64,000 nucleotides of DNA from an uncultured Gammaproteobacteria bacterium. GTDB taxonomy: Bacteria > Patescibacteriota > Patescibacteriia > Magasanikbacterales > UBA922. Below are positions 2,103-45,823 of the stretch, piece after piece. The notes under the pieces were generated by a model, which saw nothing but the letters and a program-made list of their open reading frames with translations, made no database searches and was not told where the DNA came from. The position numbers and the translations under genes were made by a program. How positions within the stretch are numbered: position 1 is the first letter of the stretch; every line of letters starts with the position of its first letter. Location: positions 83,697 to 147,696 of the forward strand of contig CAZTEU010000002.1 of the NCBI GenBank assembly GCA_964612105.1, in the 5' to 3' direction.

Positions 2103-3173
2103 ATGGAAGACAAATATATAAAAATCAAAGATAAGTTTAATGAACTAGAGCAGGCACTCCAAGACCCTGCTGTTATTGGTGATCAAAACAAGCTAAGGAA
2201 AATTTCTCAGGAATACAGTGAACTAAAAGATGTTGTAGAAAAAATAAAAGAGTTGGACAACATATCAAAGGAGCTTGGTGAGGTAGAGGCAATAATAGCA
2301 AGCGAACAAGATGAGGAGCTCAGGACCCTTGCGTCTGGAGAAGTATTAGAACTTCGTGATAGGAAAAAAATTATGGAGGATGAGTTGGCTATCGCAACCA
2401 GACCAAAAGATCCTATGGATAAGAAAAATGTAATAATAGAAATACGAGCGGGTGCTGGTGGTGATGAGGCTGCTCTTTTTGCTGGAGATCTTATGCGCAT
2501 GTACTCAAAGTACGCAGAAAGCAAAAAGTGGAAAGTACAACTTCTAAGTGAAAATAGAATCGGAATTGGTGGATATAAAGAAGTTATATTTTCCATAGAA
2601 GGAACAAACGTATATGCAGACATGAAATACGAGATGGGGGTTCATAGAGTACAGAGAGTTCCAGATACAGAAAAACAGGGGCGTATCCATACATCAACAG
2701 CTAGTGTGGCTGTACTTCCAGAAATAGAGGAAGAGGAAATTGAAATTAAACCACAAGACCTAAGAATAGATACATATTGTGCGAGTGGTCATGGTGGACA
2801 GAGTGTTAACACAACCTACTCTGCGGTGCGCATTACTCACATACCAACCGGATTGGTGGCACAGTGCCAAGATGAAAAATCCCAGTTAAAAAATAAAGAT
2901 AAAGCAATGGGAGTTTTACGTGCCCGTATCTTTGAAGCTGAACAAGAAAAGAAAGATGCGGAGCTCTCTGAAAAGAGAAAAAAACAAATAGGAACTGGTG
3001 ATAGAAGTGAAAAAATTCGTACATACAACTATCCTCAGGATAGGATTACAGATCATCGAATAAAAGAGAGTTGGAATAACATAAACACTATTTTAGAGGG
3101 TGATATTTCTAGTGTTATAGAATTACTGCGTAAAGCTGATTATGAAAAATTGGACGAAGGAGAAGACAGTTAA
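2103..3173 (+). CDS. prfA: peptide chain release factor 1
   Basis: GGQ motif ([11 protein letters not shown]) and [17 protein letters not shown] (RF1-type PxT region); followed by prmC. Confidence 0.9.
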
Positions 3174-9124: not shown

Positions 9125-10234
9125 TCACTTCTTGAGACAGGCGCCAGCACCAGTGCAGACCTCATTAGACCCGCAGTCTTTGTTGGTCTGACATTCATAG
9201 CACCAGTACACGGCACGAGGCTTCGTGGCCAGGAGCTTTCCATCCTCGGACTCGACGGCGACGCCCGAACCACAGTAGGGCTTCTCCGAGGGACAACCGA
9301 CCTCTATCGACTTGTCCGATGTGACCGCCGTGCATTGCTGACAGAGTCCGTAGCTCCCGTTGTGCATAATGCAATACTCGCCCCATGACGAGCCCTTGCA
9401 GTCCAAATCAGTCTCGCAAAGACCACTGTTGATGCACGACTTGTCCTGCTCGTGCACACACCCCTTCTTGGGGAGACAGTAGTCGAACGTGCAGAACTTG
9501 CCATCGTCACAGTCGTAGTTGGACTTGCAGACTTCGACGTTCTTGCAATTGCCGGACTTCTTGTCGCACGAGTCAATGGTGTTGGGGTTGCTGTCGTCGC
9601 AGTCCTTGGTACCATCCGACTGGCATTTTTGCTTGAAGAAGTTGCAGAACTCCATCGTGCAGACATTGCCGTCGTCACACGGCAACTTGATGCCTTTCTC
9701 CTGCAGTTCACCAATGCACTTTCCACCAAAGCAGAAGGAGACGTTGGTGCAGAGGTTGCCGTCGTCACAGCTGTCTCCGTCAACCATGGACGCGAAGTTT
9801 TGACAGCCACTGGCTTCGTCACAGGAGTCGGCGGTGCACTCGTTGTTGTCGTGACAATCGACCTGCGAGTGAACACACTCATTGTTGTCGCAGGAGTCGA
9901 TGGTGCAGGAGTTGTAATCCTCGCACTCCTCGTTGGTCTTGCACTCGACCGACGGCTCAATCTCCACCTCGCCTTCTTTCGTCGGCGTGGCGGAAACCGG
10001 AGTCTCCACCGGAACCTCGACCATCTCTTTCTCGATGATGACCGTCTCGACCTCCACCTCCACGGTCTCCGTGTTGGTGATGGTTTTGGTCTCGCCCTCG
10101 ACGATCACGACCTGCGCCGAACTGTCATCGCCAACGCCAGTGTAGTCACTGGTGCAGGCAACGGAATTCAGGATGCCGAGGATGAACGCCAGCGCGAACA
10201 GTTTGCCCAAGTGGGCCTTGATCAGATTCAACAT
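9125..10234 (-). CDS. secreted lipoprotein with Cys-rich repeats (C-T-x-D-x-C / CDDGN motifs, Myxococcus-type cysteine-rich repeat-like)
   Basis: Signal peptide + lipobox (ILNSVAC); repeated ...NxCTxDSCD... and CDDGNxCT units, many Cys. Start at second Met (AAGGAG RBS 6 nt upstream). GC-rich. Confidence 0.6.
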   Translation of the reverse strand: MLNLIKAHLGKLFALAFILGILNSVACTSDYTGVGDDSSAQVVIVEGETKTITNTETVEVEVETVIIEKEMVEVPVETPVSATPTKEGEVEIEPSVECKTNEECEDYNSCTIDSCDNNECVHSQVDCHDNNECTADSCDEASGCQNFASMVDGDSCDDGNLCTNVSFCFGGKCIGELQEKGIKLPCDDGNVCTMEFCNFFKQKCQSDGTKDCDDSNPNTIDSCDKKSGNCKNVEVCKSNYDCDDGKFCTFDYCLPKKGCVHEQDKSCINSGLCETDLDCKGSSWGEYCIMHNGSYGLCQQCTAVTSDKSIEVGCPSEKPYCGSGVAVESEDGKLLATKPRAVYWCYECQTNKDCGSNEVCTGAGACLKK

Positions 10235-10332
10235 GACTAACTCCTTCACCCGACTTGCGGGTGTTCGGTTTGTGGCGCAACTGCCATTCGGAATCCGTTT
10301 GGACGCCTAGGGTTGTCAGTCGCACCACGCGC

Positions 10333-10380
10333 TTCCTTCCCATTGCATATCCAGATTGTGGACATACAGTGGGAAGGAAG
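10333..10380. repeat. 11-bp perfect inverted repeat CTTCCTTCCCA-N26-TGGGAAGGAAG at the GC/AT transition on the right edge of island I
   Basis: Seen directly; lies 100-150 bp upstream of the island gene 9125..10234 on its coding strand. Confidence 0.4.
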
Positions 10381-10493
10381 AAGTAGATTGTAAAGATTGT
10401 TATCTATTGAGTTAGACTCAACAGGCAAGAGCGTAGGAGTGTTGGGCAGGTAATATATTTTCTCCCTCAGCCTATCGCTCTTTTCTGTTGGGT

Positions 10494-10522
10494 CAAACAA
10501 AAACCCTCTCGGGCGAGAGGGG
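10494..10522 (-). terminator. Rho-independent terminator (minus strand)
   Basis: Minus strand CCCTCTCGCCCGAGAGGG followed by TTTTTGTTTG. Confidence 0.55.
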
Positions 10523-10633
10523 TTGCGGGTTTTGGGCAGATAAAATCTACCTATATAACTCGACATTCCTCTCTCCAGAAATGTTTGGTCAATTGTAATG
10601 GGCCTATTACCAAGGCATTCTCTTTATTTTTAA
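10494..10633 (-). ncRNA. candidate ~140-nt small RNA from promoter to terminator (unclassified); alternatively a leader of island I transcripts
   Basis: Bounded by the promoter at 10640-10669 and the terminator at 10494-10522. The ORF 10246..10566 crossing the terminator is not credible. Confidence 0.25.
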
Positions 10634-10639
10634 CAACAA

Positions 10640-10742
10640 AGTATATCATAAAAAGAGGGTTTTGTCAAGACCCTAGCTCAATTAAAGTAATAAAAAATGG
10701 CTCAACTAAGCCAAATTATGTAATGTGATGGCTAATATTAGC
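10640..10742 (-). promoter_or_regulatory. promoter module (minus strand): palindromes GGCTAATATTAGCC and GGCTCAACTAAGCC upstream of TTGACA-N17-TATACT
   Basis: Minus strand TTGACAaaaccctctttttatgaTATACT; palindromic sites at 10699-10712 and 10729-10742. Confidence 0.5.
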
Positions 10743-16852: not shown

Positions 16853-16877
16853 TGGCTAATTTTTGGCTAAAATAAGC
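16853..16877. promoter_or_regulatory. two adjacent GGCTAA-type palindromic elements (GGCTAATTTTTGGCTAAAATAAGCT) between divergent promoters
   Basis: Seen directly; matches elements at 3965, 10699/10729, 39062 and 44305. Confidence 0.4.
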
Positions 16878-16906
16878 TTTTTTTATTACTTTTTCCATGC
16901 CCAAAC

Positions 16907-16935
16907 TTGACAAATGACACAAAAAATGATAAATT
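16907..16935 (+). promoter_or_regulatory. promoter TTGACA-N17-TAAATT
   Basis: TTGACA 16907-16912; TAAATT 16930-16935. Confidence 0.5.
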
Positions 16936-16941
16936 ATGCCC

Positions 16942-17152
16942 GCTGGTTGGCACGGACACACCGGCGTGCGTTTTTCGTACGTGTCCCACAGCAGGAAGTT
17001 GCCGAACCAAATTGTGACGACCAGAGCCTGAAAGGTGAGCCTGAACACCACATGCGGATTATCCTTCGGGAGAAGCCGCGTGAAGGACATGCCCAGTCCG
17101 TATGATCTTGACTTCTTGTCAATTTTGTACGGGCTGGGCTATTGATTTTTTA
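16942..17152 (+). ncRNA. candidate ~210-nt GC-rich structured RNA (unclassified) with own promoter and terminator-like hairpin
   Basis: GC-rich non-coding segment between the promoter at 16907 and the hairpin CCCAGTCCGTA...TACGGGCTGGG + T-run (17092-17152). Only overlapping 62-63-aa ORFs on both strands. No tRNA T-loop, RNase P or SRP consensus recognised. Confidence 0.3.
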
Positions 17153-17179: not shown

Positions 17180-17208
17180 TTGACAAAATATATATATTGA
17201 TATATAAT
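17180..17208 (+). promoter_or_regulatory. consensus promoter TTGACA-N17-TATAAT for the secE-nusG-rplK operon
   Basis: TTGACA 17180-17185; TATAAT 17203-17208. Confidence 0.55.
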
Positions 17209-17252
17209 ACTCCCAGAAATTCCGGCCACAGGCCGTTTTTAAATACTTATAT

Positions 17253-38925: not shown

Positions 38926-39061
38926 ATTTTTTTGCTTAACCCAGTAATGTTTACTGAGCCTCTCACCAAGAGTAAATAGGTGAGAAATGAATAATTTATT
39001 AGCCGAAATACTATAACATAAGTATAATTATATTGCAAGAGTGCGTAGTGCGATATTTTTT

Positions 39062-39122
39062 GGCTTATTTTAGCTGTTTTTTAGCTCTCAGGGTTGACAA
39101 TAGGCATAAAATGTGTTATTGT
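39062..39122 (+). promoter_or_regulatory. promoter module: GGCTTATTTTAGCT element + TTGACA-N17-TATTGT
   Basis: Element 39062-39075; TTGACA 39094-39099; TATTGT 39117-39122; ~230-nt leader to the island III gene. Confidence 0.45.
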
Positions 39123-39231
39123 CCAGTGTCGTTCTTTACACAATTTGTTGCTAAATATAGCAGGCAAATCCACCAAGAATGTGATTTTCTCATATTTTTT
39201 ATGGATTTGCTTGTAAAAAGGCGGTCAAGTG

Positions 39232-39243
39232 TGCCATGTGGCA
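39232..39243. promoter_or_regulatory. perfect 12-bp palindrome TGCCATGTGGCA in the island III leader
   Basis: Seen directly; candidate operator. A 6-bp hairpin GGCCTGtaatctaatCAGGCC (39320-39340) lies just upstream of the RBS. Confidence 0.3.
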
Positions 39244-39348
39244 TGCGTATCTGTGAAAAAAGTCGACCTCCTCGCCCTACGGTGGGCCATGGGGGTATTC
39301 GTGCCAACATACGGCCTGTAATCTAATCAGGCCACGGGAGAAGAAGAT

Positions 39349-40269
39349 ATGGGTAGCAACGGAAGAAACTCGGGACAGATCCTGTTCATGGACTGGAATT
39401 TCACTGAAGACAAGTCCGAGAGTCAGCGCTGGGAGCGACTCCTCCAGAGCTGCGACTACATCGGTCGCTGGAAGGAAGGTGTCACACCCGACCACTTCGG
39501 CGGGAAGACCCTCGCGAAGATCAGCAACCTGTTCGTTGAGGCGATGAAGATTGTCGCACCCAAACTGGAGTACAAAACCTCACGGCCGGCGCTCTACAAG
39601 ATCCTGTACCGTCACCCGAGACGGGTCGTCATCCGCGTGGACAAGAGCCTCTCAATTCCGCGACGTGTGGAGAATGGTCAGGATGTGTTCGGGTCGGACT
39701 GCGGTCTGAACATGGCCACGCGCCTGAAGCTCGTGAACGGCAATTTCAACAAGTCGCAGGGTATCCTGCGGACTGTGCTGAACAACGTCGCCAACGAGAC
39801 CACGACCAACGTCTCCGAAGCCTGCATCGACATGCTGTGGACCATCTCGCGCCTGGTCAATGGGCTGGGCATCCGCACCGACAAGGGCATGCAGTACGAG
39901 GGAGAGCTCATCTCGCCATGGCACATCGTTGTCGAGCGAGGGACCATGTCTCCCAAGAAGATGCTCGAACTCGAGCAGCAGAATGCCATCGAAGAGGCCG
40001 CTGCGAAGAAGGGGGCGGACCTGACTCAGTCTGAGAAGCATTCGGCGCTCTGCCGATACAAGGCCAAAGAGCGCGATGCTGGTCATGTGCGCCACGCCAA
40101 GATCCTCAAAGACTGGGATCTCGACGACTGGAAGGCGGAAGCGCGAGACTGCGGTGTGCGGTACGAAAATGATGTCGAGCTCGACACCCTCTCCACTGCG
40201 GTTCGCGCCAACGTGGAAGCCCGTGTCGGCAAGGCCTGGAAGCGCCTGAAGAAGTCCACGTCCAAGTAG
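39349..40269 (+). CDS. hypothetical protein (GC-rich island III); no recognisable domain
   Basis: 306 aa, ~58% GC, RBS GGGAGAAG upstream. Confidence 0.5.
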   Translation: MGSNGRNSGQILFMDWNFTEDKSESQRWERLLQSCDYIGRWKEGVTPDHFGGKTLAKISNLFVEAMKIVAPKLEYKTSRPALYKILYRHPRRVVIRVDKSLSIPRRVENGQDVFGSDCGLNMATRLKLVNGNFNKSQGILRTVLNNVANETTTNVSEACIDMLWTISRLVNGLGIRTDKGMQYEGELISPWHIVVERGTMSPKKMLELEQQNAIEEAAAKKGADLTQSEKHSALCRYKAKERDAGHVRHAKILKDWDLDDWKAEARDCGVRYENDVELDTLSTAVRANVEARVGKAWKRLKKSTSK

Positions 40270-41737: not shown

Positions 41738-44260
41738 ATGCCAAAAAAGAAACCCGCTTCAAGCAAAAAAACCACTCCTAAAAAAGGGGGGAAGACAATG
41801 GAGGCTGTTCCTGAGGAAAAATCAATAGGAAAACTAGAGCCAATATCACTGGTCGACGAAATGCAGACCTCGTATTTAGATTACGCAATGAGTGTTATTG
41901 TTTCACGTGCCTTACCAGATGTTCGTGATGGGCTAAAGCCTGTTCACAGAAGAATCCTTTACGCAATGTGGAAGATAGGATTAAAACACAACAGTAAATT
42001 TAGAAAATCTGCCCACGTTGTTGGTGAGGTGATGGCAAAATACCATCCTCATGGTGATGCAGCAATATACGACTCCATGGTTCGTATGGCACAGGACTTT
42101 AGCATGAGGGAAATGCTTGTGCACGGACAAGGTAACTTCGGGTCCATGGATGGAGATAGAGCAGCTGCAATGCGTTATACCGAGGCAAAACTAAAATCTA
42201 TTGCTGAGGAATTACTATTTGATATAGAAAAAGAAACCGTTAACTTCTCACCAACATACGACTCAGCAACAAAAGAACCAAGCGTACTTCCAAGTAAACT
42301 ACCCAACCTGCTACTAAACGGAAGCATGGGTATTGCTGTTGGAATGGCTACAAATATTCCCCCTCATAATCTTGGAGAACTTTGTGATGGGGTTGTACAT
42401 TTAATAGAACACCCAAAAGCCACAGTTGAAGACTTAAACAAATTTATAAAAGGACCAGATTTTCCAACAGGTGGAATTATATATAATAAAGCAGACATAC
42501 AGACTGCGTATGCAACAGGTCGTGGTGGAATGGTTGTGCGTGCAAAGACAGACATACAGGAAAGTAAGGCGGGGCGTTTTCAGATAGTAGTAACTGAGGT
42601 GCCTTATCAGGTTAACAAAGCAAACCTATTGGAAAAGATAGCTAAGCTAGTACAAGAGAAAAAACTTGAAGGAATAAAAGACCTAAGAGATGAATCAAAT
42701 AAAGATGGTGTTCGTGTTGTTGTAGAGCTTAAAAAAGATGCCTACCCAAGAAAAGTGCTTAATAGGCTGTTTAAAATGACCCAACTACAGACTACCTTCC
42801 ACATGAACATGATTGCTCTTGTAGATGGCATACAACCACGTGTTCTCAATCTCAAGTCAGTCCTCAAGGAATACATTAAACATCGCCAAGAAGTTGTAAG
42901 ACGTAGAACTCAATTTGATTTGGATAAAGCAAAAGAAAGAGCTCATATTTTAGAGGGTCTTAAAAAGGCCTTAGATAAAATAGATCAAGTTATCAATACA
43001 ATTAGAAAATCAAAAGATAAAGAAATGGCAAAAGCTAATTTGATGAAAAAATTCAAGTTTACAGATAGGCAGACAGTTGCAATCCTAGACATGCGCCTAC
43101 AGCAACTTGCCAACTTGGAAAGACAGAAGATTATTGATGAATTAAAAGAAAAGAAAGCTCTTATAAAAGAGCTTATGGCACTTCTCGCAAGTGAGGCAAG
43201 AATAAAGACTGTAATTAAAAAGGAAGTAAAAGCAATAAACGATAAGTACTCTTCAGACCGCCGTACTCATATCGTTCCTCATGGAGTAAAAGACTTCAGC
43301 ATGGAAGACTTGGTACCAAACGAACCTACAATTATCATGGCAACTCAAGATGGATATATAAAAAGAATGCCTGTAGATACATTTAAGACACAGGGTCGTG
43401 GTGGTAAAGGTGTGATTGGTCTTACCACAAAAGAGGAGGATGTTGTAGAACACCTAATCTCTACAAACACTCACGACAACATACTTTTCTTCACAACAAG
43501 AGGACGAGTATTCCAAATGCATGCATACGATATTCCTCAAGCTTCTAGAACAGCAAAAGGGCAGGCATTAGTAAACTTCCTACAACTTGCTCCAAATGAA
43601 AAGGTTTCATCTATCCTGTCTTTCGATGATGTAAGTAAATACAAATTTCTAGTAATGGTTACAAACAAAGGAACAATAAAACGTACGAAGCTTGAAGATT
43701 TCAAGAACGTGCGTAAGTCTGGTCTTATTGCACTAAAACTAAAAACAGATGATATGTTAGAGTGGGTACGTCCATCCACTGGAAAAGACGAAATTGTACT
43801 AACAACTTCTCTTGGACAAGCAATTCGTTTCAAAGAATCTGGAGTGCGTGCAATGGGAAGAACCGCTGCTGGAGTTAGAGGAATAAAACTAAAATCACAA
43901 GACTCCATCGTTGGTATGGGAATTGCAGAACCAGAACTAGCAAAGAAAAAAGTACTAGAGCTGTTGGTTGTATCAGAAAACGGTCTTGGAAAGAGAACAA
44001 ATCTTAATGAGTATAAAGTACAAGGACGCGGTGGAAGTGGAATAAAAACAATGGCTGTAACAGCAAAGACTGGTAAATTAATTAGTGCTAGAGTTATTAA
44101 TAAGACAGATGAACAAGATCTAATGCTTATCTCCACAGGTGGGCAGGTGGTAAGAACTCCACTAAAGACAGTTTCCACTCTTGGAAGAGCTACACAAGGT
44201 GTGCGAATAATGAGATTTAAGAAAGACGGAGATACAGTTGTGAGTATGGCGTTGTTATAA
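41738..44260 (+). CDS. gyrA: DNA gyrase subunit A
   Basis: N-terminal ...[29 protein letters not shown]... with the active-site Tyr region; C-terminal beta-pinwheel repeats. Confidence 0.9.
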
Positions 44261-44279
44261 AAAACACTAAATAGCAATA

Positions 44280-44306
44280 AAAACACCATGATTATGGTGT
44301 TTTTTG
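44280..44306 (+). terminator. Rho-independent terminator after gyrA
   Basis: ACACCATgattATGGTGT + tttttt. Confidence 0.65.
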
Positions 44307-44376
44307 CTAAAATAAGCTATTTTCTTGCGTATTTCTACCCCTAAGGCTTGACAAAACCACAAAAGCGTACTATACT
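44306..44376 (+). promoter_or_regulatory. promoter module: GCTAAAATAAGCT element + TTGACA-N17-TATACT
   Basis: Element 44306-44318; TTGACA 44348-44353; TATACT 44371-44376. Confidence 0.5.
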
Positions 44377-44383
44377 CCATCGT

Positions 44384-44712
44384 TGTAATAGTGAGTCAGA
44401 ATTACACGGATGTATATAGATAGTAATAAATAGTGTCTAGATATATCCGTAGCGTAATGGAGATGGTAATTGAAATACCCGACGTTGTGAGCGGGAACCA
44501 CACTTCCAATGCGGATGTTTTTCCTCGGCGTGTGTCGGGGTTAGGAGGTTGGTGCTTGTCGGAACCCTTCGCGAGAGGGAAGACGAGATTGCGCACGGCC
44601 ATGCGTAATTGTGGGAGAAAAGGAGACTCTTCTCCCACCCACCACCACCATGTAGACATCACTCGCTGGTGTATAGATAAAAACAAAAAATCCCTGCTGG
44701 GGATTTTTTGTT
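44384..44712 (+). ncRNA. candidate ~330-nt structured RNA (unclassified) with own promoter and terminator
   Basis: GC-rich core 44470-44690 with hairpins (e.g. GGGAGAAAAGGAGACTCTTCTCCC) in an AT-rich genome. The only ORFs read through the terminator AAUCCCUGCUGGGGAUUUUUU. No tmRNA T-loop or RNase P P4 consensus found by eye. Confidence 0.35.
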
Positions 44713-44733
44713 TACTAAATTTTATTCTATATA

Positions 44734-45324
44734 TTACATCTTACCCAATATCTTTAAGGCTTCTCTCAACAAGTCTTCCGTATCCTTATCTTTACTGTCT
44801 AAATCTTGCACAACAGACTTTACAGCTTCTTTGCTATAACCCATTGTTACAAGCCCTTCTATAACCTCCGCAAGAACAGCTCCATTTCCTTGATTGTCTG
44901 CTATCTCAGACAAAGATGTAACTTTGTTTTTTAGCTCCACAACAATTCTTTCTGCTGTCTTCTTACCCATCCCCTGCACAGCTGTGAGATATTCTACATC
45001 TCCTCTTGCTATTGCAGATTTTATTTCCTCAATAGAACCAAGTGATAGTATGTGCATTGCACTTTTTGGCCCTACGCTTTTTACAGATAACAGAAGTGAG
45101 AAGAAGTCTCTGTGCGCGTTGGATTCGAAACCAAAAAGCTCTAAAGAATTGTCTGAAACCTTAAGATATGTTGGTATTTGTACTTCCTGGTTAATTTCAT
45201 AACCAGAGAGCTGTAGGCGTGAAAGCCTTACACTATAACCAACACCACCAGATGTTAGTATTGTGACTTGATCTGTATTTTTATCTACCACATGTCCGGA
45301 TAGTATAGTTATCATACTTGACAA
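44734..45324 (-). CDS. ruvA: Holliday junction DNA helicase RuvA
   Basis: OB-fold N-domain, tandem HhH (SVKSVGPKSA...GMGKKTAERIV), C-terminal domain III. Confidence 0.85.
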   Translation of the reverse strand: MSSMITILSGHVVDKNTDQVTILTSGGVGYSVRLSRLQLSGYEINQEVQIPTYLKVSDNSLELFGFESNAHRDFFSLLLSVKSVGPKSAMHILSLGSIEEIKSAIARGDVEYLTAVQGMGKKTAERIVVELKNKVTSLSEIADNQGNGAVLAEVIEGLVTMGYSKEAVKSVVQDLDSKDKDTEDLLREALKILGKM

Positions 45325-45406: not shown

Positions 45407-45823
45407 CTATTCCCAAGGAAATACAGATATTAAATATTTCACTCCTGTTTTCTTTTCCTCTACAACCTGGACAGCAAATAACATATTGTTTGGTGTTTCT
45501 CCAATAAAACGGTGTAGTATTCTAGATTTGTTCTTTTTATTAATCTTTGAGACTGGTTCTATTGCGGTGTTTTGTATAAGATCAATTGAACAAGGAAACA
45601 GGCTTAGTCTTCTCTTCCTATCACGCCAATTCTTTTGGTGTAAGTGTCTCCAAAAGATATCTAAAAATATCTTTTCTTTCTTAAAAAACTTGGAACGAAC
45701 ATAGGGTCTCCTTTTTGATTTACTTTTTATCCCATCAAAAAAGCCAATGGCCTTCCTTTCAATATCTCGATATCTACCCCCAGAAATAGGATATCTATTT
45801 GTTTTGTAAACCCCCCTCTTCAT
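45407..45823 (-). CDS. small basic hypothetical protein, paralog of 15082..15492
   Basis: Shared core KIFLDIFWRHLHQKN...ISVFP; SD AAGGAGGgtgtATG; starts 18 nt after the pepA stop. Confidence 0.5.
   Translation of the reverse strand: MKRGVYKTNRYPISGGRYRDIERKAIGFFDGIKSKSKRRPYVRSKFFKKEKIFLDIFWRHLHQKNWRDRKRRLSLFPCSIDLIQNTAIEPVSKINKKNKSRILHRFIGETPNNMLFAVQVVEEKKTGVKYLISVFPWE

Follow-up and report, generated by a model that had tools for sequence, protein, structure and literature searches.

A predicted transcription unit in the gap between gyrA and ruvA, here called RNA1, may be a young gene, independent and restricted to one lineage, whose product is a structured non-coding RNA of ~300-335 nt. 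The probability of this reading was put at about 0.5. The window, the whole stretch of DNA analyzed, is 64 kb in length and all positions refer to it. By its sequence RNA1 has the generic make-up of an independent small RNA gene, with a predicted promoter and terminator of its own and a non-coding body. The features of the region are given in Table 1.

Table 1. Features of the gyrA/ruvA region and helices of the predicted RNA1 fold.
Feature	Position	Strand	Remarks
gyrA	41738-44260	+	
gyrA intrinsic terminator, left boundary of the unit	44279-44304	+	perfect 11-bp inverted repeat AAAAACACCAT/ATGGTGTTTTT
Promoter module	44300-44378	+	T-run, GCTAAAATAAGCT, T-rich spacer, -35, -10
Upstream element GCTAAAATAAGCT	44306-44318	+	
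-35 box TTGACA	44348-44353	+	
-10 box TATACT	44371-44376	+	
Predicted transcript RNA1, ~335 nt (about 300-335)	44382-44716	+	from promoter and terminator positions
P1, closing helix	44383-44396 with 44661-44676	+	pair probabilities 0.65-0.95
P2, long AU-rich hairpin, 18 bp	44406-44450	+	inverted repeat; pair probabilities 0.93-0.98
P3, interrupted hairpin with large internal loop	44453-44513	+	pair probabilities 0.75-0.91
GC-rich core domain (P4-P9)	44514-44660	+	pair probabilities 0.77-0.99 except distal P7
P4, encloses P5 and P6	44514-44520 with 44654-44660	+	
P5, hairpin	44523-44540	+	
P6, closes four-way junction with P7, P8 and P9	44544-44554 with 44640-44649	+	
P7	44555-44587	+	distal 5-bp segment 44565-44569/44575-44579 at 0.59
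P8	44588-44609	+	
P9, GAGA tetraloop tip	44611-44638	+	
ORF	44433-44864	+	crosses the terminator, then 130 nt antisense to ruvA
ORF	44402-44686	minus	begins within the terminator
Terminator common to RNA1 (+) and ruvA (-)	44681-44713	both	14-15 pairs, then U-run
ruvA	44734-45315	minus	converges on RNA1

The unit (44306-44716) is enclosed by two separate terminators, that of gyrA on the left and that of ruvA on the right. The genome is that of a marine Candidatus Magasanikbacteria member (Patescibacteria/CPR). GyrA was 54-83% identical to the GyrA of Candidatus Magasanikbacteria metagenome-assembled genomes. The exact protein was also found on JGI 3300007509 contig Ga0105012_1000039 and on 18 further contigs. 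The RNA1 sequence was identical across independent JGI, Logan and ENA assemblies, which rules out an assembly artefact. Copies of RNA1 within the species were 100% identical and the flanking 10-14 kb were equally identical. The copies are therefore clonal and uninformative on selection. The start of RNA1 was placed 6-9 nt past the -10 box and its 3' end in the U-run after the terminator. The intrinsic terminator named in the initial annotation is present. It was called on both strands with a pair probability of 0.97 and ends ruvA too, which would require it with or without an RNA; because it is bidirectional it is not independent evidence for an RNA. A replication terminus or dif site was also considered for the region and dismissed, as the GC skew merely tracks gene strand.

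The promoter is of the sigma-70 type with 11 of 12 consensus matches and a 17-nt spacer. This bears out the TTGACA-N17-TATACT promoter with its upstream element that had been described here. Sites with at least 11 of 12 matches numbered 15 in the 64 kb, compared to 1.5 expected from Markov shuffles, and nearly all of them were intergenic and faced genes. Given this roughly 10-fold enrichment and the intergenic placement, the RNA1 promoter is a meaningful prediction in this organism.

The RNA1 promoter appears to be a paralogous copy of a promoter cassette. Two further segments of the window, 16860-16937 (+) and 10720-10639 (-), were homologous to approximately 75 nt of the RNA1 promoter region (profile E-values 1e-14 to 1e-16). 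The cassette consists, in order, of a T-run, GGCTnAnnTnAGCy, TTTTTTATTACTTT, a spacer and cTTGACAAAAC-17-TATACT. The copy at 16.9 kb heads a GC-rich, Rfam-negative unit of ~210 nt which is closed by a terminator and directly followed by a second promoter and secE-nusG. No counterpart of this unit was found in 80 nusG loci of relatives. The copy at 10.7 kb heads a segment of ~140 nt ending in a terminator-like hairpin (10521-10504), although it may alternatively read on into a GC-rich gene. All three copies precede short terminator-bounded units, at least two of them non-coding, and the transcribed bodies behind them are mutually unrelated. Weaker versions of the cassette were seen at the rpsA promoter region (profile E-value 0.024) and before a tRNA-Asn leader located 8 kb left of the window (E-value 0.09).

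A bolder proposal is that RNA1 is the largest of a lineage-specific set of stable structured RNAs, together with the 16.9-kb (~210 nt) and 10.6-kb (~140 nt) units, all under one shared promoter/operator cassette, in which case the three units may form one regulon. RNA1 itself would then be a large folded RNA of a new class, a ribonucleoprotein scaffold or a catalytic RNA, of recent origin in a reduced-genome symbiont. This was regarded as a long shot.

The initial annotation had described a GC-rich segment full of helices, and this description held. The RNA1 body has a GC content of 55% (core 55-57%; 0.56 at 44475-44624) compared to a window mean of 40.5% (0.405). GC content alone is not diagnostic because the window contains many GC-rich islands, several of 55-65% GC lying next to strong promoters. 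The body without the terminator (44383-44678, 296 nt) had a predicted folding energy of -107.3 kcal/mol compared to -83.0 ± 4.9 kcal/mol for shuffled sequences (z = -4.99), and none of 200 dinucleotide shuffles was equally stable. With the terminator included the minimum free energy was -124.7 kcal/mol (z = -6.6). The reverse complement, representing the minus strand, gave a z of only -2.4. In a GC-corrected comparison with 850 natural 298-nt segments of the 64 kb, the plus strand came 18th (z = -2.4), the minus strand being average. Several other intergenic stretches in the window folded equally well or better. The plus strand of RNA1 is G-rich (GC skew +0.26 to +0.29), which favours G-U pairing on that strand.

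The predicted RNA1 fold is compact, well defined and strand-biased. Most helices had pair probabilities of 0.8-0.99. The helices quoted in the initial annotation were recovered, GGAUGUAUAUAGA...UCUAGAUAUAUCC as hairpin P2 and GGGAGAAAAGGAGACUCUUCUCCC as hairpin P9. The predicted four-way junction is essentially without unpaired bases and long single-stranded segments are nearly absent. In the predicted fold P6 pairs AGGAGGU with CCACCACC, by which the Shine-Dalgarno sequence would be sequestered.

RNA1 was non-coding by every test applied. The GC content by codon phase was flat (0.59/0.53/0.51), without codon periodicity, compared to GC3 values of 0.56-0.84 and GC2 values of ~0.4 in the GC-rich genes of the window. 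The codon-usage score was -0.06, compared to 0.26 ± 0.10 in host genes. No Pfam match was obtained in any RNA1 frame. A six-frame query against 5.8 billion proteins returned zero matches; it also missed the Logan-called ORF itself, probably on account of the X-rich query. The plus-strand ORF was searched with HMMER against 1.84 billion cluster representatives, and the only matches were itself, as an automatic call, and two marginal ones (E-values 8e-5 and 3.5e-4). Its 90% identity cluster contained two members of the same sequence. Apart from these self and marginal matches no protein homologs of the RNA1 region were found among ~15 billion proteins. Both ORFs involve the terminator, as the initial annotation had noted. 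The region was concluded to be non-coding on the basis of the missing periodicity, the ORFs crossing the terminator and the lack of homologs.

The same results bear on whether RNA1 is instead a small-protein gene encoding an orphan of ~100-135 aa from a TTG start at 44556 or an ATG start at 44459 or 44465. A perfect Shine-Dalgarno sequence, AGGAGG (44543-44548), lies 7 nt before the TTG, and two gene callers placed ORFs of 133 and 135 aa here. The JGI annotation placed none. The ORF would have to cross a 15-bp terminator and 130 nt antisense to ruvA, its codon score is poor, periodicity and Pfam matches are lacking, its homologs amount to itself and two marginal matches, and the Shine-Dalgarno sequence is buried in predicted helix P6. 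A small-protein gene was judged very unlikely.

Searches against known RNA families were negative. The whole 64-kb window gave no match to Rfam 15 at the gathering score. Relaxing the threshold to an E-value of 10 (cmscan with 601 nt and with 301 nt, the latter with relaxed filters) gave just terminator and hairpin noise (OrzO-P, rimP and miRNA models). ARAGORN predicted no tRNA or tmRNA genes. As a positive control, the tmRNA of another marine CPR genome (L041/L042) was found by both ARAGORN and Rfam, with a score of 125.7 bits. Since this control was detected, CPR divergence does not explain the negative Rfam result.

The housekeeping RNAs have recognizable hallmarks. RNase P RNA has a P4 pseudoknot and conserved CR-I/CR-V sequences. 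No RNaseP_bact_a or RNaseP_bact_b match was obtained, and GGAAAGUCC and ACAGAA..GGCUUA were not visible in the sequence. A tmRNA has a tRNA-like acceptor and T-arm ending in CCA and a tag reading frame; it was rejected because ARAGORN and Rfam were both negative while the control CPR tmRNA scored. SRP RNA is marked by a helix 8 that carries a GNRA tetraloop and conserved loops, both symmetric and asymmetric. Both the 4.5S and the large type were rejected as there was no Rfam match at an E-value of 10 or below. 6S RNA, ~150-240 nt in length, forms a rod in which a large central bubble separates the closing stem from the terminal stem. It was rejected for want of an Rfam match and because RNA1 is predicted as a multi-branched fold of about 300-335 nt rather than a rod. 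By these searches RNA1 belongs to no described RNA family.

The initial annotation had pointed to a housekeeping stable RNA (RNase P, tmRNA, SRP or 6S), and the cmscan and ARAGORN results spoke against this. It had allowed for a divergent or novel RNA, and of the two 'novel' is the better description than 'divergent known RNA' because there is no Rfam match. It is very unlikely that a highly divergent housekeeping RNA was missed by the covariance models. The size, the helix closing the 5' and 3' ends and the strong promoter do recall stable RNAs, the cassette is weakly similar to sequence at the rpsA and tRNA-Asn leader promoters, and none of these RNAs was found elsewhere in the 64 kb. Against it stand the lack of any family match even for the 301-nt query under relaxed filters, a negative ARAGORN result where a CPR tmRNA is readily scored, and a branched fold unlike the 6S rod. 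In addition, housekeeping RNAs are conserved, and no examined locus of a relative, the syntenic slot included, contained RNA1.

The comparison covered 31 gyrA loci of related species, one genome per species, together with the closest ruvA contigs and the exact-protein contigs, and blastn, nhmmer and tblastx detected no counterpart of RNA1 outside the species itself. RNA1 was absent also from the 80 nusG loci, and a further 18 kb of flanking sequence of its own genome held no second copy. The nearest RuvA relatives in a collection of 15 billion proteins were 71, 67, 65 and 60% identical. Searched against 418 kb of related loci, a covariance model (R1) of the four-way-junction domain recovered itself alone, besides two junk matches that were both inside one locus (L025). 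No relative turned up when viral and metagenome contigs were scanned with back-translated patterns; the species is apparently absent from the metagenome collection. BLAST against phage and plasmid collections returned nothing past a 32-nt chance match, and a P9 DNA pattern had no match in viral contigs. A 17-mer matched twice in viral contigs, one match extending to 20 nt in a gene read by eye as uracil-DNA-glycosylase-like (protein 12/25 residues, E-value 0.005 in a single post-hoc comparison, no Pfam support). Both were judged chance matches. In 82 kb of this genome the RNA1 body is single-copy and the promoter cassette alone is repeated. With no homolog and only identical copies there is no covariation and nothing from which to read selection.

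The initial annotation had held that absence from related genomes would count against the candidate, and the element was absent from all relatives examined. A functional RNA can therefore be proposed but not claimed.

The gyrA/ruvA slot itself varied among relatives. It was empty in one locus (L038), with an 81-nt gap and a single shared terminator, and another (P0005) had a gap of 41 nt by gene coordinates only. Three loci (L006, L035, L036) carried a GC-rich GATase-like gene of ~400 aa, one (L001) an AAA_28 ATPase and three (L002, L005, L013) small or unknown ORFs. The slot seems to gain and lose cargo in this clade, and the RNA1 unit is probably an insertion into an originally empty gap. 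A miniature (MITE-like) mobile element would be expected in several genomic copies with terminal inverted repeats and target duplications. A 13-nt inverted repeat (44370-44382/44664-44676) with 85% complementarity was found and no target duplication was seen. A very basic protein of 138 aa encoded adjacent to the unit was missing from the ruvA loci of relatives. Its homologs in marine CPR genomes lie beside smpB-tmRNA, beside pnp and inside a ribosomal protein operon. These loci are without an RNA1-like element, and the protein was rejected as a partner of RNA1.

The variable slot also accommodates the main rival explanation, that RNA1 is left over from acquired GC-rich DNA, transcribed yet without a function as RNA, for example decayed slot cargo, lying by chance behind the cassette and ahead of the ruvA terminator, with a fold that is a by-product of G-rich composition. 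This was considered rather unlikely. The slot holds cargo or is empty among relatives, GC-rich and probably acquired DNA is frequent in this genome, several islands of 55-65% GC lie beside strong promoters in the window, RNA1 is confined to one species, and the plus-strand skew would itself favour G-U pairing. However, neither at the protein nor at the DNA level was RNA1 found to resemble the cargo genes of relatives or any other sequence. A relic of the GATase-like gene was specifically rejected for lack of similarity, and tblastx showed no relic similarity to any slot cargo. Residual codon periodicity is absent, and the excess of stability survives same-strand dinucleotide shuffling (z = -5.0). 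Paired 5' and 3' ends and gap-free junctions are not expected from random decay.

The convergent arrangement with ruvA raises a different possibility, an antisense or interference device in which partial read-through from the strong promoter into antisense ruvA and the genes upstream of ruvA would tune that operon and the body would act as a conditional, riboswitch-like control of the read-through. RNA1 converges on ruvA with the bidirectional terminator alone between them and there is no plus-strand gene downstream. Such a device was held to be improbable, as the terminator, of 14-15 pairs, is long and followed by a good U-run, inspection gave no convincing antiterminator pairing, and the ruvA of relatives manages without an RNA1 unit. 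No known riboswitch class was matched. A conventional riboswitch or cis-acting leader was rejected because the terminator is followed by converging ruvA and not by a plus-strand gene, and because no Rfam aptamer was found.

If RNA1 is an independent structured RNA gene, its unit would have come about by placing a copied promoter cassette and a GC-rich body ahead of the ruvA terminator that was already there. The near-consensus promoter would direct transcription just past the gyrA terminator, and transcription would end at the bidirectional terminator common to converging ruvA. The product would accumulate as a stable, end-protected molecule. It may act in trans by virtue of its fold, for instance as a scaffold that binds proteins, a decoy or a sponge. 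RNAduplex comparison with 58 translation-initiation regions of the 64 kb gave antisense targets no better than those of shuffled RNA1. A shape-dependent role is favoured over seed pairing by the scarce single strands, the paired ends, the gap-free junctions and the lack of an above-chance target. It is the most likely mode of action, as a guess from architecture.

RNA1 resembles several known systems in part. Screens for long GC-rich intergenic regions (GC-IGRs) in AT-rich genomes seek structured non-coding candidates, and a motif is accepted in these studies only with several covarying homologs (PMC6429828, PMC8632094, PMC11109978). Like such candidates RNA1 is GC-rich, has its own predicted promoter and terminator, is strongly structured by prediction and has no coding signal. 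Unlike the accepted motifs it has not a single homolog in the data searched. RNA1 would be left unnamed or unranked by GC-IGR criteria because there is no homolog with covariation. Orphan status in a single species is the commonest fate of GC-rich intergenic candidates.

Stable RNAs that bind RNA polymerase include 6S RNA and the mycobacterial Ms1 of ~300 nt. RNA1 is similar to these and to scaffold or decoy RNAs in its strong promoter, paired ends, high degree of predicted structure and few seed regions, and in an Ms1-like length. It differs in having no central-bubble rod, Rfam match or conservation, and its protein binding is only proposed. The unit also recalls type I toxin-antitoxin (hok-like) mRNAs, being ~300 nt, structured, intergenic and predicted to have paired ends and a sequestered Shine-Dalgarno sequence. 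Unlike these it lacks an antisense promoter and a short hydrophobic ORF stopping ahead of the terminator, and it has no homolog. Propagated or mobile promoters are homologous promoter segments upstream of unrelated genes in one genome, and the ~75-nt cassette common to three units with unrelated bodies is similar. It is different in that all three copies drive short terminator-bounded units, at least two of them non-coding, and it carries no transposase or terminal repeats that define a mobile element. RNA1 was classified as an orphan of the generic kind of independently transcribed small structured bacterial RNAs and not as a new class.

To our knowledge almost nothing is known of the regulatory and structural RNAs of CPR bacteria beyond the universal ones. 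A multi-helix RNA of 300 nt under a strong promoter would be costly to retain in a genome of ~1 Mb if it were useless. If expressed, RNA1 would be among the few large lineage-specific RNAs of CPR bacteria. The cassette further provides a starting point for understanding how such genomes build new transcription units, by joining a copied promoter and a new GC-rich body to a terminator already in place.

A second candidate non-coding unit was found at 16860-17151 (+), where it carries the same promoter cassette as RNA1, the candidate structured non-coding RNA between gyrA and ruvA. Its fold had a folding-energy z score of -3.9 relative to shuffled sequence. An Rfam search at E≤10 returned no match for the unit, and no homolog was present in any of the 80 nusG loci of relatives. 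Immediately 3' of the unit is another consensus promoter (17180-17208), followed by secE-nusG. Coordinates of the individual features are listed in the table.

Features of the window and of related or flanking loci (L006, L035 and L036, gyrA/ruvA loci of related species; L045, a nusG locus of a relative; L126, extra flank from the same genome as the window)
Feature	Position	Strand	Remarks
Upstream element GCTAAAATAAGCT	window 16866-78	+	candidate unit at 16.9 kb; as in RNA1
-35 TTGACA	window 16907-12	+	promoter of same unit
TG-n-TAAATT	window 16927-35	+	promoter of same unit
GC-rich body	window about 16940-17090	+	same unit
Terminator hairpin, then U-run	window 17091-17139	+	same unit
secE 5' leader: short GC hairpin, then UUUUUAAAU	window 17223-17245	+	conserved in relatives
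Third promoter-cassette copy	window 10639-10720	-	
Long leader ahead of GC-rich gene	window 10249-10500	-	
Long leader ahead of GC-rich gene	window 39099-39349	+	
Very basic 138-aa protein	window 45407-45823	-	pI 10.6, 34 Lys/Arg; between pepA and ruvA
Palindrome sites	window 10728-10741, 16853-16878, 39062-39074; L045 about 516-529; L126 about 2986-2997		
Promoter, then leader ORF MKMKRVNNNNNNSL	L126 2800-2930	-	six consecutive Asn codons
GC-rich gene of about 400 aa	L006 6540-7850 (-); L035 4608-5861 (+); L036 3057-3446		between ruvA and gyrA in relatives

The third cassette copy drives a segment of roughly 140 nt at 10495-10634 (-), which ends in a terminator-like hairpin (10521-10504; z -2.7). 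Alternatively, this segment is the start of an mRNA: a 107-codon ORF crosses the hairpin, and its stop codon lies shortly ahead of a GC-rich gene. The start of that gene is probably ATG 10234.

Several promoters have a palindrome of the type GCTAA-N(2-4)-TTAGC at a distance of 25-60 nt on the 5' side of their -35 box (e.g., GGCTAATATTAGCC, GGCTAAGATTAGCC and GCTAAGCTTAGC). Among the loci fetched, the exact 12-mer GCTAAAATAAGC occurred only in this species. The palindromes might be the operator of a regulator or weak terminators of the genes upstream.

In relatives the secE leader lies about 230-270 nt upstream of nusG, and its stem changes in sequence while pairing is kept (e.g., GGCC..GGCC, GCCC..GGGC) in at least 23 of the 80 related loci. 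It resembles an attenuator or a pause element ahead of secE-nusG. Some 8 kb to the left of the window, and on the same contig, the leader ORF with the Asn codons is followed by a terminator hairpin and directly by tRNA-Asn(GTT) at 2788-2714 of L126. This arrangement looks like a leader-peptide attenuator in control of the gene for the cognate tRNA.

Relatives lack the basic protein beside ruvA at this locus, and it had no match in Pfam or NCBIfam. Its homologs fall into about 27 clusters, the greater part of them from marine samples. Examined homologs were located beside smpB-tmRNA, beside pnp and inside a ribosomal protein operon, and the protein may be RNA- or ribosome-associated. In three relatives the gap between gyrA and ruvA holds the GC-rich gene, whose product of about 400 aa has a weak class-I glutamine amidotransferase domain; in others it contains an AAA_28 ATPase, small ORFs of unknown function or nothing. 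The gap between the converging genes is one of fast turnover.

In the GC-corrected ranking, both long leaders ahead of GC-rich genes belonged to the most over-structured parts of the window; of the 850 ranked segments, those that begin at 39001 (+) and at 10201 (both strands) took places in the top five. Neither leader had a match in Rfam. Islands of 55-65% GC are located at 7.7-10.25, 15.7-16.7, 39.2-40.2 and 51-53 kb in a genome of roughly 40% GC, each of the four adjoined by a near-consensus promoter. They code for proteins without a Pfam match, for a repeat protein rich in Cys (Dicty_CTDC), for one resembling UPRTase and for a nucleoside phosphorylase. GC3 in the island genes reaches 0.84, and these genes were probably acquired.
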